Below, one piece after another: positions 17,463 through 60,141 of a DNA stretch of 64,000 bases (positions are counted from its first letter, which is position 1; each line of letters begins with the position of its first letter). Where the stretch lies: the NCBI RefSeq assembly GCF_053078305.1, contig NZ_CP166879.1; one strand, given 5' to 3'. The notes under the pieces are model-generated. The model searched no databases. It saw nothing but the letters and a program-made list of their open reading frames with translations, and was not told where the DNA came from. A program made the translations under genes and the position numbers.

Positions 17463-17665
<203 letters not shown>

Positions 17666-37737: not shown

Positions 37738-40782
<3,045 letters not shown>

Positions 40783-54241: not shown

Positions 54242-54319
54242 AGCCGGAGATATCCAGTAGACATTTTCCCCCTGAGCATTCAAATCAGAAAAAGTATGGT
54301 TACAGCGGAGTACAGAATA

Positions 54320-54745
54320 ATGCGTGATATCCAACAGGTTCTGTCCCGATGGGGTGCATGGGTGGTAAATAATCATGAGAGTGTGGCATGGTCCGGCGTC
54401 GCTGCCGGATTTAAGGGAGTGATCCCATCAAAGGTTAAATCACGGCCTCAGTGTACCGATGATGATGCGCTGATTATCAGCAATTGCATGGCGCAACTGA
54501 ACGTCAACAACAGCGATTTGCATGATTTTCTGTATGATTATTATGTGTTCGGGATGACGCTTATGGGACTGGGCCGTAAGCATGAGCGCTCTGATTGCTG
54601 GGCCGGGCGGGTACTGCAAAAAGCTGAAGGTGTTATTGAGGGGATGTTGATTATGCAGGGAATAAAACTGGAAATGGACAGATACGTTGAGCGTGAACGA
54701 TCAGGGGCACAGGTCAGTCAGTTTTCCGGACATACGGGAAATTGA
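54320..54745 (+). CDS. Q: Late-gene antiterminator Q (933W-type family)
   Basis: ORF 54296..54745. I prefer Met at 54320 ([20 protein letters not shown]...[12 protein letters not shown]...[12 protein letters not shown]), which closely matches my recollection of Stx-phage Q. GGAG lies 9 nt upstream. Confidence 0.8.
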
Positions 54746-54769
54746 AAGCGCGGGGTTTTACTGTAGAAT
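54742..54769 (+). promoter_or_regulatory. Strong sigma70-type promoter overlapping the Q stop codon (hok-mRNA promoter and/or PR' equivalent)
   Basis: TTGAAA (54742-54747), a 16-nt spacer, then TAGAAT (54764-54769). The predicted start near 54775-54777 coincides with the 5' end of the hok-type mRNA fold. Confidence 0.6.
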
Positions 54770-54774
54770 GACTG

Positions 54775-55164
54775 CGGGTGCTTGAGGGGGTCTGCCTCGG
54801 GCATGCTGCCGTAAGGCAGACGGAGAAAAGCCCCAGTTAACATTACGTGTCCTGCAAGACGCTTAACATTAATCTGAGGCCCAATCTATGTCACACAACC
54901 GTAGGTTAGCCTCTTACGTGCCGGAAGGCAAGGAGAAGCAGTCTATGAAGCAGCAAAAGGCGATGTTAATTCGCCCTGATCGTCATCTGTTTAACCGTCA
55001 TAGTGACGGCACTGGTAACGAGGAAAGACCTCTGCGAGGTACGGATCCGAACCGGCCAGACGGAGGTCGCTGTCTTCGTAGACTACGAATCTGAGAAGTA
55101 AGAGACCAGGCGGGGGAGTAATCTCCCGCCACCTCTGATGTGTCAGGCATCCTCAACGCACCCG
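54775..55164 (+). other. hok/mok/sok-type type I toxin-antitoxin transcription unit (full-length mRNA architecture)
   Basis: The 5' CGGGTGCTTGAGG (54775-54787) is complementary to the 3' CCTCAACGCACCCG (55151-55164), as in tac/fbi fold-back pairing. The mok-like leader starts at ATG 54888. Leader sequences resemble plasmid R1 hok (GCTTGAGG..TCTGCCTC..., CTATGTC...AGCCTCTTAC...GCAAGGAGAAG). A 3' hairpin lies at about 55109-55130. Confidence 0.7.
54945..55101 (+). pseudogene. hok: hok/gef-family toxin gene disrupted by a +1 frameshift (extra T at 54970/54971)
   Basis: As written, the ATG at 54945 gives MKQQKAMLIRPDRHLFNRHSDG... Deleting one T restores MKQQKAMLIALIVICLTVIVTALVTRKDLCEVRIRTGQTEVAVFVDYESEK, a canonical Hok/Gef sequence, with stop at 55099-55101. 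Confidence 0.7.
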
Positions 55165-55275: not shown

Positions 55276-58176
55276 ATGCTGCCAGACCAGCGACCAGCGA
55301 CCAGCGACCAGCGACCAGCGACCAGCGACCAGCGACCAGCGACCAGCGACCAGCGACCAGCGACCAGCGACCAGCGACCAGCGACCAGCGACCAGCGACC
55401 AGCGACCAGCGACCAGCGACCAGCGACCAGCGACCAGCGACCAGCGACCAGCGACCAGCGACCAGCGACCAGCGACCAGCGACCAGCGACCAGCGACCAG
55501 CGACCAGCGACCAGCGACCAGCGACCAGCGACCAGCGACCAGCGACCAGCGACCAGCGACCAGCGACCAGCGACCAGCGACCAGCGACCAGCGACCAGCG
55601 ACCAGCGACCAGCGACCAGCGACCAGCGACCAGCGACCAGCGACCAGCGACCAGCGACCAGCGACCAGCGACCAGCGACCAGCGACCAGCGACCAGCGAC
55701 CAGCGACCAGCGACCAGCGACCAGCGACCAGCGACCAGCGACCAGCGACCAGCGACCAGCGACCAGCGACCAGCGACCAGCGACCAGCGACCAGCGACCA
55801 GCGACCAGCGACCAGCGACCAGCGACCAGCGACCAGCGACCAGCGACCAGCGACCAGCGACCAGCGACCAGCGACCAGCGACCAGCGACCAGCGACCAGC
55901 GACCAGCGACCAGCGACCAGCGACCAGCGACCAGCGACCAGCGACCAGCGACCAGCGACCAGCGACCAGCGACCAGCGACCAGCGACCAGCGACCAGCGA
56001 CCAGCGACCAGCGACCAGCGACCAGCGACCAGCGACCAGCGACCAGCGACCAGCGACCAGCGACCAGCGACCAGCGACCAGCGACCAGCGACCAGCGACC
56101 AGCGACCAGCGACCAGCGACCAGCGACCGTAAATCAAGAAAGTCTGTAAAATCTGTTGAACCAGACATTGCCGACCGGGCTAACAGCTGGCTCAAATCTT
56201 ATGGACTTGATTACAAACTGGAGCAGGCACCACTTAACAACGAGATCGATAACGCACTGGATGCTTATTTTTCGAAAAATGGCGGCGCAGGCGGTAATCG
56301 TCCCGACGTAAAACTCCTTGTTCAGGACAAATACGGCAAGCAGTATCCCGTTCTCATCGAGTATAAAGGCTACAAGGACAGGCTTATCAGACTTGGCAGC
56401 AACGGTATTATTGAGAACAAAGATGCCAGAAAAGAATGGAATTTTAAAAATATTAATGGATACGCGGTGAATGGCGCAGTCCATTATGCCAACGCACTTC
56501 TTCAGTTCACCAATTACCCTGATATTATTGCTATTGGTATGACCGGCTGGCGCGATGATGATACAGGCGAACTGCATCATGAAATCGGCGTGTGGTACGT
56601 ATCAAAGAATAATTTAGGAGCCGGGCAGAAGGTTGGTGAATTCACCGACTTATCATTCCTTGCTGACAAAAATGTTGATGGATTTCTCAACAAGATAAAG
56701 CTGCTTAATCTTCCTCCCGAAGAACTGGAAAAAATCAAGGCCAGCAAAGAGGAAGAGATAGACACGCGACTTTCCCGTCTGAATAACGATATTTACCAGA
56801 ATGAAAAGGGGCTTGGTGAAAGCGATCGTGTTTACCTTGTTGTGGCTACCGTTATTGCAACGTTGGGGATTCCGGGAAAGTTAGCACCGCTGGATAAAAA
56901 AGAACTGACCTCTTCAACGGAGGAGGACTTGCGTGATGGTGATATTATTTTCAGGAAAATAAGGAATTTTTTAAGGCTGAAAGCTGTTCCTGAAACAAAA
57001 AGAGAAATGATTTTGCGCTCGTTGCAAAATACGCTGTGGACTGAAAACATTAACAAACCAGTCAACGGTGAAAGCCAGTTAAAGCGCGTGTTTGTTAAAG
57101 TTGTTGATGATCTTGGGGAGTATTACAAAATCGGACTGACCACCGATTTTACGGGCAAACTGTTTAATGAGATGTATCGCTGGCTTGGATTTACGCAGGA
57201 CAAACTCAATGACGTCGTTCTGACACCACCTTATGTTGCCACATTGCTGGCACGACTCGCCAGAGTAAACAAAGATTCCTATGTGTGGGATTTTGCTACA
57301 GGTTCTGCGGGATTGCTTGTGGCTGCAATGAATGAAATGCTCATTGACGCCAGAGAAAATATTCACTCACCGAATGAACTACAACTTAAGGAAGCGCAAA
57401 TCAAGGCTGAACAGCTTCTTGGCCTTGAGGTGTTATCCAGTATTTATATGCTGGCCATCCTGAATATGATTTTGATGGGGGATGGTAGCTCGAATATCCT
57501 CAATAAAGACTCGCTAGCCGATTTTGACGGCAAGTATGGATTTGGGAAAACAGGAGAAAAATTCCCTGCGGACGCATTTATTCTCAATCCTCCGTATTCA
57601 GCTAAAGGTAACGGCATGATTTTCGTGCAGAAGGCGCTGTCGATGATGGATAAAGGCTATGCTGCAGTGATTATCCAGAGTTCAGCCGGCACAGGAAAGG
57701 CTACGGAGTACAACAAAAAAATACTCAAGGAAAATACCTTGCTGGCAAGCATCAAAATGCCTGCGGATCTGTTTATTGGTAAATCAAGCGTTCAGACGTA
57801 CATTTACGTTTTTCAGGTAAAAATTCCGCATAACGCGAAACAGGCTGTTAAGTTTATCGACTTTTCCAATGACGGCTATGCTCGCTCTAATCGCAAAAAG
57901 GCAAGAAACAATCTTGTTGATGCCGATCGTGCAAAAGAGCGTTATCAGGAGGTTGTGGATCTGGTTCACTTCGGGAAAGGTTGCCTTAATATCTTTACGG
58001 AGGATGAATATTTTGAGGGAACAATCGATCCTGATAGTGGTGAGGACTGGAATCAGACTAGGCCAGTAGATACCAGACCGACACTGGAGGATTTTAAAAA
58101 GACGGTTGGCGACTATCTTGCGTGGGAGGTGTCAAAACTTCTTCAGGGGCGTGATGCGTCAGAAAAAAAGCAGTAA
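55276..58176 (+). CDS. Restriction-modification polypeptide: 40 x PATSDQR repeat leader + PD-ExK (HSDR_N-like) nuclease + gamma-class N6-adenine methyltransferase (BcgI-A-like, Type IIB/IIG layout)
   Basis: ATG 55276 follows AAAAGGA. After the repeat come NRPDVKLLV...YPVLIEYKG (PD...ExK), then YVWDFATGSAGLL (SAM motif I) and FILNPPYS (motif IV). No SF2 translocase domain is present. It is followed by an HsdS-like gene. Confidence 0.75.
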   Translation: MLPDQRPATSDQRPATSDQRPATSDQRPATSDQRPATSDQRPATSDQRPATSDQRPATSDQRPATSDQRPATSDQRPATSDQRPATSDQRPATSDQRPATSDQRPATSDQRPATSDQRPATSDQRPATSDQRPATSDQRPATSDQRPATSDQRPATSDQRPATSDQRPATSDQRPATSDQRPATSDQRPATSDQRPATSDQRPATSDQRPATSDQRPATSDQRPATSDQRPATSDQRPATSDQRPATSDQRPATSDQRPATSDQRPATSDQRPATSDQRPATSDRKSRKSVKSVEPDIADRANSWLKSYGLDYKLEQAPLNNEIDNALDAYFSKNGGAGGNRPDVKLLVQDKYGKQYPVLIEYKGYKDRLIRLGSNGIIENKDARKEWNFKNINGYAVNGAVHYANALLQFTNYPDIIAIGMTGWRDDDTGELHHEIGVWYVSKNNLGAGQKVGEFTDLSFLADKNVDGFLNKIKLLNLPPEELEKIKASKEEEIDTRLSRLNNDIYQNEKGLGESDRVYLVVATVIATLGIPGKLAPLDKKELTSSTEEDLRDGDIIFRKIRNFLRLKAVPETKREMILRSLQNTLWTENINKPVNGESQLKRVFVKVVDDLGEYYKIGLTTDFTGKLFNEMYRWLGFTQDKLNDVVLTPPYVATLLARLARVNKDSYVWDFATGSAGLLVAAMNEMLIDARENIHSPNELQLKEAQIKAEQLLGLEVLSSIYMLAILNMILMGDGSSNILNKDSLADFDGKYGFGKTGEKFPADAFILNPPYSAKGNGMIFVQKALSMMDKGYAAVIIQSSAGTGKATEYNKKILKENTLLASIKMPADLFIGKSSVQTYIYVFQVKIPHNAKQAVKFIDFSNDGYARSNRKKARNNLVDADRAKERYQEVVDLVHFGKGCLNIFTEDEYFEGTIDPDSGEDWNQTRPVDTRPTLEDFKKTVGDYLAWEVSKLLQGRDASEKKQ
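55285..56128 (+). repeat. Perfect heptanucleotide tandem repeat (GACCAGC) x 120 plus a partial GACC
   Basis: I checked the phase at the start of every 60-nt line and it is consistent. The six-frame translations are perfectly periodic (PATSDQR / WSLVAGR). I saw no variant unit. Confidence 0.97.
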
Positions 58177-58250: not shown

Positions 58251-59360
58251 TTGTTCAGTATTCAGACACCTAAAAAGAAATTTAATGCCAATAAATTAAC
58301 ATTTAATGGCAACTATCCTTATGTTGCCAGAGGAAGTAACAATAACGGCATAAAAGGATATATAGATGAAGATGAATTATATCTCAACCCGGGGAATACA
58401 ATTAGCTTTGGTCAGGATACTGCGACTATGTTCTATCAGGAAAACGCATATTTCACAGGTGATAAAATAAAGATTTTTTCTCTCAGGCATGGAGAGTTAA
58501 ATTCGCGAATTGCTTTTTTTCTTATATCAGCAATGAAAAAATCTTTTTCAACGTTTAGTTGGGGGAGTAGCTCTTTTAATGAGAATGTTCTCAATAAGGT
58601 AAAGATAAATATACCTACGTTTAATAATGTTCCTGCATATAATTATATGGTAAAGTATATAGAAGAGCTGGAAGCGGCCCATATAGAAGAGCTGGAAGCG
58701 GCCCATATAGAAGAGCTGGAAGCATACCTGATAGCTGCTGGGCTGAGTGATTACCAACTAACGGAAAAAGATTATCTTATCCTGGAACATTTTAAAAATA
58801 TTGAATTTTCAGGCTTTCCTGTTACTGAGTTATTCTCAGTGTGCAATACAGGAAACATATTGTCTAGAGACATCATAGAAAATAGTGGGGATGTTCCTTA
58901 TCTTTGTGCTAGCCGTGAGAATAACTCTGTTAGTTCTTATATCGCCTATGATAACTCACTCTTGGAAAAAGGGAACTGTATTTTTATTGGTGGTAAGACA
59001 TTCGTTGTAACTTATCAGGAGCGAGACTTTTTTTCAAACGACAGTCATAATTTGCGACTCTATGTTAACAATGAGGATGGAAGGACAAAGTTTGCTTATT
59101 TGGGCATTATTTCATGTATTTATAGATCTATTTCACATAAATATTCATGGGGGGATAGTGTTAGTAATAGAAAAATTAAGAACGATGTTGTTTGGTTGCC
59201 AGTAAAAAATAAGTCACCTGACTTTTGTTATATAAATGACCTTATTTCAGTTGTTCATAAGCTTGTCATTAAAGATGTTGTCCAGTACGCAGAACGCAAA
59301 ATGAACGCATACAGGCAAGCTATAACAAGTCGCGGTTATGATGATTCTGGTGTCAGTTAA
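58251..59360 (+). CDS. Specificity (S) subunit with two target-recognition domains (HsdS / BcgI-B-like)
   Basis: 369 aa from TTG 58251. The same frame is open back to 58155 with no ATG/GTG/TTG, and it encodes S-like sequence (RLAELEREFIKSGGKWEEYTIERLF). Two TRD-like halves are separated by a helical IEELEAAH repeat. Low GC. Confidence 0.7.
   Translation: MFSIQTPKKKFNANKLTFNGNYPYVARGSNNNGIKGYIDEDELYLNPGNTISFGQDTATMFYQENAYFTGDKIKIFSLRHGELNSRIAFFLISAMKKSFSTFSWGSSSFNENVLNKVKINIPTFNNVPAYNYMVKYIEELEAAHIEELEAAHIEELEAYLIAAGLSDYQLTEKDYLILEHFKNIEFSGFPVTELFSVCNTGNILSRDIIENSGDVPYLCASRENNSVSSYIAYDNSLLEKGNCIFIGGKTFVVTYQERDFFSNDSHNLRLYVNNEDGRTKFAYLGIISCIYRSISHKYSWGDSVSNRKIKNDVVWLPVKNKSPDFCYINDLISVVHKLVIKDVVQYAERKMNAYRQAITSRGYDDSGVS
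58659..58723 (+). repeat. 24-bp tandem repeat (2 full units plus 17 nt) encoding IEELEAAH in the central helix of the S subunit
   Basis: atagaagagctggaagcggcccat at 58659-58682 and 58683-58706, then atagaagagctggaagc at 58707-58723. Confidence 0.9.
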
Positions 59361-59660: not shown

Positions 59661-59899
59661 GTATCCGTTCAACAGGAATGTTACATACCTCACAATTAAG
59701 TCAGTTGAAGGTTGTCTGCCCGGATGAGAATTTGTTAGAAAATTTCTGCATGGTGAATCCCCCTGAGCGGCGGGGCATATCAGCGTCACAGGTGTTTCTG
59801 TTTTACCTCTATCCTTTCTGTGCGGGTTCAGGTGCTGATACTGAACTCACCGGGAGGCACCCGGCACCATGCAGTATACAGAGATTAGGCATATACCAG

Positions 59900-59924
59900 G
59901 GCCCCTCATAGCAGGGGCCTTTTT
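59900..59924 (+). terminator. Intrinsic terminator upstream of nanS-p
   Basis: GGCCCCT / AGGGGCC stem with a 6-nt loop, followed by T5. Confidence 0.7.
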
Positions 59925-60141
59925 ACATGCAAAAAAAAGCCGCCCCGGGAAGAGCGGTTGGCAAGAAGAAAAGCAATATGAACAATTAATTAACGCTGCG
60001 AATAATACCTTACAGTAATCACCCTGCGCAACTGTGAGGAGTGTATTTCTTTTTTGCGGGTGGTTGTCTTTTTCCCTTGTGTTTCGGGACTTCCGTTCAC
60101 TCCTTATCTTATTCAGTACATTATCCCGGCCGGGAGGATTC

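Follow-up and report, generated by a model that had tools for sequence, protein, structure and literature searches.

Known hok/sok systems and the present locus

The closest described relatives of the locus analysed here are hokW-sokW of the Stx2 phages and hok/sok of plasmid R1. Intact HokW was found by experiment to be toxic and localised in the inner membrane, and sokW RNA neutralises it (PMC8621323). Furthermore, intact hokW-sokW roughly doubles the release of phage Sp5 after mitomycin C, and HokW shares only 44% identity with R1 Hok (PMC8621323). The RNA elements tac, fbi, ucb and dcb are used here with the definitions and roles that were given for R1 (PMC9841398).

The window, the whole stretch of 64,000 nucleotides of DNA that was analysed, contains at 54742-55164 (+) a complete hok/mok/sok-type locus directly 3' of a Q antiterminator gene. 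We put the probability at about 0.88 that the locus is a hokW-sokW allele with a dead toxin gene, belonging to the hok/sok type I toxin-antitoxin family and seated in a prophage moron slot between Q and a methyltransferase gene. By the sequence and structural features tested it belongs to the family in everything except an intact toxin open reading frame, and it is therefore a pseudogene rather than a working member.

54296-54745 (+): Q antiterminator gene, 149 aa (PF06530, Phage_antitermQ, 153.7 bits); context only

Two profile matches speak for the assignment. RF01794 goes by the name 'sok' in Rfam but in reality models the leader of the hok mRNA; it scores 97.6 bits at 54776-54947 (+) and covers model positions 1-157 of 157 (gathering score 59, E = 8e-21). 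Once the extra T described below is deleted, hok matches PF01848 (Hok/Gef) over profile positions 1-42 of 42 with 81.1 bits, and the resulting peptide is identical to HokW of phage 933W at 51 of 51 residues. An earlier sequence-only reading of this DNA had described a full hok/mok/sok-type architecture after Q, and had proposed that dropping one T at 54970/54971 restores a Hok/Gef peptide; both proposals are borne out, and the elements it described were all located where it had placed them or a few bases away.

The setting is an stx-less lambdoid prophage, with a gene order in relatives of repressor, helicase/primase replication module, Q, methyltransferase, HsdS gene, nanS-like esterase, holin, lysozyme and Rz. 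In identical loci Q is annotated as 'antiterminator Q family protein'.

The inserted T and the broken toxin frame

The lesion lies within two overlapping frames that share one reading phase.

54888-55094 (+): mok as written, a frameshifted reading frame of 68 aa; ancestrally mok would have ended at 55101 (ORF list, translation)
54945-55094 (+): hok frame as written, 49 aa, diverging after codon 9 (translation); Shine-Dalgarno GGAG at 54932-54935
54970-54971 (+): inserted T, TTAATCGCC to TTAATTCGCC, the frameshift; a single gap column in three alignments against intact relatives
54972-55101 (+): what is left of the Hok frame (residues 10-51 and TAA), no longer in phase with its own start; assigned from the repaired translation and its identity to 933W HokW

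The ATG of mok (54888) precedes that of hok (54945) by 57 nt in the same frame and has its own Shine-Dalgarno, GAGG, at 54876-54879. This in-frame arrangement had been noticed from the letters, and its offset equals that of mokC/hokC in K-12 and of mokW/hokW in 933W. Alignment with six intact relatives, among which JNEC-KY171, OkiPb01714, E2855, the hokD allele of E7-1N7 and hokW of 933W are named, showed the T gained at 54970/54971 to be the sole indel in the coding region. The context of the insertion is a single T turned into TT and not a long homopolymer.

The hok product as written is MKQQKAMLIRPDRHLFNRHSDGTGNEERPLRGTDPNRPDGGRCLRRLRI, a peptide of 49 aa with a GRAVY of -1.42, a net charge of +6 and no hydrophobic segment; the repaired peptide is MKQQKAMLIALIVICLTVIVTALVTRKDLCEVRIRTGQTEVAVFVDYESEK, with 51 aa, a GRAVY of +0.54 and a 19-aa window maximum of 3.07. 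Neither the mok nor the hok product as written matched a Pfam or NCBIfam family. A compensating second indel or a rescuing start codon was found neither in the list of open reading frames nor in the alignment; the sole in-frame downstream start, GTG at 55003, yields a 32-aa fragment that begins inside the hydrophobic segment and loses most of it. Since the 68-aa and 49-aa products are hydrophilic and basic and have no membrane segment, no Hok toxin can be made from this allele. In JNEC-KY173 an independent -1 frameshift was observed in hok, where a T is missing from CTCTGC, and the hok gene has thus been inactivated more than once.

The toxin could in principle still be made by recoding, if the ribosome shifted by +1 or RNA polymerase slipped at the TT, with the insertion serving as regulatory attenuation. 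The frameshifted open reading frame ends just 7 nt before the native stop, so that ribosome transit would be almost unchanged, as such a scheme would have it. We nevertheless regard recoding as very improbable, because TTA-ATT-CGC holds no known +1 slippery or hungry-codon motif, the homopolymer is too short for polymerase slippage, and no stimulatory structure is predicted beyond a local hairpin of 5 bp. We know of no precedent for recoding in the hok family.

Distribution and inheritance of the inserted T

The sequence-only reading had left a choice between an inactivated toxin and a base-call error, and it had allowed that the frame as written might be the one conserved in relatives. Complete E. 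coli genomes were searched with a query of 61 nt centred on the insertion site. The TT allele was found in 5 of 5,426 (2012EL-2448, 2015C-3121, 2018-166, DETEC-S792 and 04-00955), and about 4,500 carry the uninterrupted sequence, so the intact frame, not the one as written, is what relatives conserve. Three of the complete genomes show no difference from the window over 455 bp (100% identity). Annotation was examined in four of the five carriers (2012EL-2448, 2015C-3121, 04-00955 and DETEC-S792), and all four bear the RefSeq/PGAP label 'Hok/Gef family protein, frameshifted'. This is a known system with a lineage-specific dead toxin, and its exact allele is already annotated as frameshifted in RefSeq.

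The product of the broken frame is also found well beyond the complete genomes. In a collection of 15 billion proteins the exact 68-aa product occurs on 106 public contigs, and seven variants of it with single- or few-residue changes occur on 76 further contigs, giving a total of about 182 drawn from NCBI, ENA and Logan assemblies, Illumina metagenomes included. Contigs with one of the product variants match the window without a difference from Q up to and including the inserted T and then continue into a hokD-type 3' half, and recombinant contigs have DUF968/HNH or Rem downstream where the window has the methyltransferase. Because the inserted T occurs with recombinant 3' halves and with different downstream genes, the allele has been passed among mosaic prophages by recombination. 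Throughout, the +T copies are at most 2 SNPs apart in their 5' two-thirds. The allele was absent from the phage and plasmid collections, in which the best identities were 93.2% and 92.9%, respectively.

These data decide against an error of sequencing or assembly behind which the toxin would be intact. Single-base indels are the commonest error of long-read assembly, and the window may itself be one of the three genomes identical over 455 bp. However, the five carriers come from the USA, Germany, China and elsewhere and from different laboratories, and they differ in linked SNPs and in their Q, replication and methyltransferase alleles. The same insertion recurs on the Illumina-derived contigs and in recombinant backgrounds, and a change of T to TT offers no homopolymer run in which such an error would arise. 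An error at this site is thus effectively excluded, and the insertion is genuine and inherited; of the two options left by the sequence-only reading, inactivation stands and the base-call error falls.

The wide occurrence of the broken frame might also be taken to mean that the basic peptide of 49 or 68 aa has acquired a new function, since it is present on more than 100 contigs and one source lists it as a named protein, 'Modulator of killing'. We find this hardly credible. The peptide has no family match, and its eight variants differ by replacements such as D53N, RR to HS and I to T; the ACGG/ACGA site is polymorphic among intact hok alleles, where it is silent in the Hok frame. As at least one variant site is an intact-hok polymorphism of this kind, the variation follows the history of the Hok frame and not a constraint on the new one. 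A dead hok frame, inherited as such, is the reading retained below.

Predicted fold of the hok mRNA

The RNA scaffold around the broken frame was analysed by minimum free energy (MFE) folding and by a consensus fold of 11 relatives.

54742-54769 (+): hok mRNA promoter, sigma-70-like, TTGAAA-16-TAGAAT (consensus scan, 10 of 12 matches); the -35 overlaps the Q stop codon
54776-55164 (+): full-length hok/mok mRNA, about 389 nt, with a provisional 3' end (RF01794 over 54776-54947, MFE fold, consensus fold)
54776-54788 (+): tac, the 5' strand of the fold-back helix; its counterpart in the MFE fold is 55150-55163, and tac is invariant in 11 relatives
55150-55163 (+): fbi element, 3' partner of the fold-back helix (MFE and consensus fold)
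54830-54880 (+): hairpin that sequesters the Shine-Dalgarno of mok, GAGG (54876-54879), by means of ucb, GCCCCAG (54830-54836) (MFE, Rfam consensus, consensus fold)
55109-55130 (+): 3' stem-loop of 9 bp, GGCGGGGGA/UCUCCCGCC (MFE); two pairs covary, GC to AU, among relatives

Transcription of hok is predicted to start at about 54776, which is the first base of the RF01794 match. A Q-dependent late promoter in place of the hok promoter was rejected, because the -10, kept as GTAGAAT in hokW of 933W, travels with the hok module there and Q is not adjacent. The scan for an alternative late promoter covered the surroundings of a match to STnc100. No intrinsic terminator was found after fbi in a scan of the window.

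The segment 54776-55172 folds with an MFE of -164.7 kcal/mol (z = -6.6), and none of 100 shuffled sequences folds as well. The consensus fold of the 11 relatives has the same architecture and includes 11 pairs with compensatory changes, some of them in the 5' and 3' hairpins. In the MFE structure tac and fbi form a 13-bp closing helix with one bulged C; in terms of sequence, CGGGTGCTTGAGG at the 5' end (54775-54787) is complementary to CCTCAACGCACCCG at the 3' end (55151-55164) save for that bulge. In K-12 hokB two pairs of this helix are exchanged in a compensatory manner (U-A to C-G, G-C to A-U), and the helix is thereby preserved. The fold-back pairing of the two ends and the 3' hairpin, both pointed out from the sequence beforehand, are therefore recovered as the closing helix and as the stem-loop at 55109-55130, which by analogy with R1 (PMC9841398) is expected to guard the 3' end of the processed mRNA.

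Inside this helix both initiation regions are predicted to be occluded. The ucb segment 54830-54836 pairs with 54874-54880 in the MFE and consensus folds, in a hairpin that also contains the Sok target region, and the hok start codon is buried in the MFE structure within an 11-bp helix of 54940-54950 with 55074-55084. When the 3' end was removed (54776-55134), the tac/ucb 'open' form was not recovered in the MFE of the truncated RNA; tac instead paired with the sequence just downstream of it, in a manner that resembles the published metastable hairpin. The extra T scarcely touches any of this: the fold energy is -164.7 kcal/mol as written versus -166.5 kcal/mol with the T deleted, the architecture is the same, and only one small local hairpin of 5 bp in the predicted mRNA fold is changed.

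Sok antisense RNA and its promoter

54903-54931 (-): Sok promoter, -35 TTGCCT (54931-54926), 17-nt spacer, -10 TAACCT (54908-54903) (script; homology to the R1-type locus)
54826-54896 (-): Sok antisense RNA, about 60-71 nt, mapped by alignment from the annotated sokW of 933W

On the opposite strand lies, as judged from sequence, a cis-encoded Sok that has a promoter of its own and is complementary to the region where translation of mok starts. In the putative RNA a 5' tail, single-stranded and complementary to the start of mok, leads into a long hairpin that is followed by the U-tract tail GGGGCUUUUCU; the whole folds with -25.3 kcal/mol (z = -3.3). The 5' end of K-12 sokC likewise lies 9 nt into mokC.

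The promoter had been sought elsewhere by the sequence-only reading, which proposed TTAACA-17-TAGACT at 54950-54978. That site does match the consensus, but its spacer is really 18 nt and its position 54969-54940, and it is not homologous to the known Sok promoter. The true homologue is TTGCCT-17-TAACCT at 54931-54903, which is kept in relatives according to the alignments and has TTGCGC-17-TATCCT as its positional homologue in the R1-type locus. In fact, primer YO-421 of Takada et al. changes TAGGTTA, which is this -10, to CCGGCTC, and the change abolished protection from HokW (PMC8621323). TTAACA-18-TAGACT was rejected because its -10 reads TAGCCT in 933W, E2855 and hokD alleles, and because the functional sokW clone of Takada et al., which starts at the hok ATG (primer YO-406), lacks its -35 (PMC8621323).

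The T that creates TAGACT, T54942, pairs with A55082 in the helix at the hok AUG (consensus fold, columns 168-308); this pair is U-A in 4 sequences, G-C in 3 and G·A in 4. The base is G in 933W and T here, where it completes the U-A pair. T54942 is accordingly best read, from the modelled fold, as an mRNA-structure variant and not as a promoter feature.

Proposed mechanism, loss of function and an RNA-only alternative

The ancestral steps have been shown for R1 hok/sok and for hokW-sokW, and we infer them for the present locus. The promoter at 54742-54769 would yield a stable hok mRNA, which would be translationally inert because its 5' and 3' ends are held in the tac/fbi helix and ucb pairs with the mok Shine-Dalgarno. 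Slow trimming of the 3' end up to the hairpin at 55109-55130 would let the 5' end refold and expose mok, on whose translation that of hok would depend, while the unstable Sok would bind the mok start region and direct the mRNA to RNase III cleavage. In the present allele the inserted T shifts both mok and hok past Hok codon 9, so that the product of initiating ribosomes would be a basic, harmless peptide that stops 7 nt short of the old stop codon.

Since every RNA element is untouched, both RNAs are probably still transcribed, and hok mRNA and Sok are, to judge from the intact promoters, probably still made from this allele. The mRNA is predicted from its modelled fold to close as before, and by analogy with the described systems it would open in the same activation step. 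By analogy with intact hokW-sokW, the module should have lost killing and assistance of lysis. The simplest reason for the intact scaffold is that the mutation arose recently in evolutionary terms and that, with the toxin dead, nothing remains for selection to act against.

Selection on the RNAs themselves would be another reason for an intact scaffold. An RNA-only module could supply Sok that neutralises hokW- or hokD-type mRNAs of co-resident or incoming prophages, or an untranslatable hok mRNA that serves as a Sok decoy. In all the +T copies examined, recombinants included, no damage was seen in the two promoters, the Sok hairpin or any of the mRNA elements, and persistence through several prophage backgrounds in this condition is also what RNA selection would produce. 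Potential partners are at hand in 2012EL-2448, 2015C-3121 and 2018-166, each of which has three hok-like places, but carrier 04-00955 has only this one and hence no partner. The stem region of Sok is nearly invariant across hokW and hokD alleles, whereas the segment formed by the Sok 5' tail and the mok-start target, through which recognition occurs in R1, varies most among alleles (alignment columns 106-127), which argues against broad cross-talk. In the work of Le Rhun et al., cross-talk of R1 hok/Sok with hok loci of the chromosome was not found (PMC9841398). Finally, copies at most 2 SNPs apart over the 5' two-thirds need no selection to be intact. We therefore hold an RNA-only function to be unlikely, if less so than the other alternatives, and trans-acting Sok from dead loci is not favoured by the evidence. 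If it were real, altered lysis timing or superinfection outcomes would follow in polylysogens, and it would matter for how the numerous hok copies of pathogenic E. coli influence one another.

Under the preferred reading, that of an inherited toxin pseudogene on an intact scaffold, the locus adds one more case of type I toxin gene decay inside a prophage, which by itself carries little weight. Prophages with the +T allele should miss the approximately two-fold boost of phage release reported for hokW-sokW. For annotation the result is of direct use: the 68-aa open reading frame, recorded as 'Modulator of killing' or in some records as 'protein hokD', is a frameshift artefact of mok/hok.

The adjacent methyltransferase gene

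The next gene, at 55276-58176, encodes an HsdM-type N6-adenine methyltransferase (PF02384, N6_Mtase) with a separate HsdS. At its 5' end the 7-bp unit CCAGCGA is repeated 120 times without a mismatch, and in the relatives examined the copy numbers were all different (16, 23, 30, 53, 55, 63, 65, 76 and 93). As 7 is not a multiple of 3, the copy number sets whether the enzyme is in frame with the ATG at 55276, with an upstream GTG or with neither. A phase-variable Type III mod gene of STEC, M.Eco131I, carries CAGCGAC[n] (PMC5909438). Identity of the neighbour with M.Eco131I was rejected, because the published primers are absent from the window and the protein is of the N6_Mtase/HsdM type with a separate HsdS; it is a different enzyme with the same repeat unit. 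This hypervariable (CCAGCGA)n methyltransferase gene is more interesting than the hok pseudogene beside it.

Comparison with known systems

The nearest relative is hokW-mokW-sokW of 933W/Sp5 (VT2-Sakai, Stx2 phages), whose DNA is 92% identical to the window over 409 bp. The two have the same mok offset of 57 nt, the same tac, fbi and ucb elements, and the same Sok -35/-10 and Sok hairpin. Unlike the 933W copy, the present one has its toxin frame broken by the T gained at 54970/54971, and it follows Q directly, whereas that of 933W is located behind L0139/L0140, close to the right genome end. They also differ in the segment of the Sok 5' tail and the mok N-terminal codons, which is CAATCTATGTCACACAACCG here and CAATCCATGCTGAACACATG in 933W.

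With hok/sok (parB) of plasmid R1, the founding member, the locus shares the overall architecture, the 5'-3' fold-back pairing and a GC-rich 3' hairpin, and the Sok promoter of R1, TTGCGC-17-TATCCT, is in the same position. The resemblance of the leader motifs to R1 hok, suggested before by eye, was recovered in the alignment as conserved blocks common to the window, R1-type hok and K-12 hokB (GCTTGAGG, GCCCC, TAGCCTCTTAC and GCAAGGAGAAG). In distinction from R1, mok and hok share one frame here, an arrangement also seen in mokC/hokC and mokW/hokW; the copy resides on a prophage and not on a plasmid, and the toxin is frameshifted.

The K-12 loci hokA-E, of which hokD/relF is in the Qin prophage, are of the same family, and hokD-type alleles are more than 91% identical to the window. 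That hok loci in E. coli can be inactivated and still keep part of their RNA elements has long been known, and was reportedly described by Pedersen and Gerdes in 1999 (Mol Microbiol 32:1090); in K-12 hokC, IS186 lies immediately downstream. In conclusion, the present locus was inactivated not by IS insertion or loss of the leader but by a one-base frameshift inside the open reading frame, with its regulatory elements all intact.

Inactive and recombinant copies of hok

Inactivation of the hok gene is not confined to the +T allele, the form in which one inserted T breaks the mok and hok frame. In E. coli JNEC-KY173 (L004 1700-1854), whose hok carries the annotation 'frameshifted', one T is lost from CTCTGC at column 288 of A1, the alignment of the window's hok locus with its relatives. 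This deletion is an inactivation of the same gene, independent of the +T allele. Three further copies were found in ENA assembly and metagenome contigs:

L016 and L018, 1501-1707 in each: +T hok copy
L017, 687-893: +T hok copy

These are recombinant copies of the +T allele, in which the sequence is the same as in the window from Q through the inserted T and thereafter passes into a hokD-type 3' end, followed by a clear intrinsic terminator (AACCCGCTTCGGCGGGTTTT). Downstream of hok in these contigs, DUF968/HNH or Rem replaces the methyltransferase.

Chromosomal and prophage context

The following features bear on the nature of the surrounding DNA.

17546-17616, 40587-40663 and 40701-40777: naRNA4 matches
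59719-59930, plus strand: sRNA family STnc100, full-length match (167.6 bits)
60034-62055: SASA/nanS-like esterase ORF, 673 aa

The naRNA4 family consists of REP/BIME-like nucleoid-associated RNA repeats typical of the E. coli core chromosome, and its matches therefore suggest that the window covers both chromosome and prophage. STnc100 sits between the restriction-modification genes and the esterase ORF, at the position occupied in Stx phages by the stx genes. Neither stx nor tRNA genes were found in the window. STnc100 might be the short leader RNA made from the late promoter.

Repeats in the restriction-modification genes

58251-59360, plus strand: HsdS specificity subunit gene (PF01420)
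58657-58723, plus strand: 24-bp repeat in the HsdS gene, 2.8 perfect copies
55276-58176, plus strand: HsdM-type N6-adenine methyltransferase gene (PF02384)
55287-56126, plus strand: CCAGCGA repeat array, 120 perfect copies

The 24-bp unit codes for (AHIEELEA)n within the central spacer that separates the subunit's two target-recognition domains; in EcoR124I/II-type systems, a change in the number of repeats at this position gives a recognition sequence with a spacer of different length. In the complete E. coli genomes 2012EL-2448 and 2015C-3121, both with the +T allele, the S gene is just 600 bp long, and in 2015C-3121 an IS1 lies directly upstream of it.

The array of CCAGCGA heptanucleotides forms the 5' start of the methyltransferase gene, and its copy number, 16 to 93 in relatives, differed in every one examined. 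This number sets which start codon, if any, shares the reading frame of the methyltransferase: the ATG at 55276, a GTG lying upstream, or none. The array is therefore a candidate for a phase-variable switch with three states. The minus-strand RefSeq annotations 'YXWGXW repeat-containing protein' are artefacts of the repeat.

The same heptanucleotide unit has been published for M.Eco131I, a Type III mod gene of STEC (PMC5909438), the primers for which were not found in the window. The two genes are thus alike in repeat unit but different in enzyme, M.Eco131I being a Type III mod and the window's gene HsdM-type.
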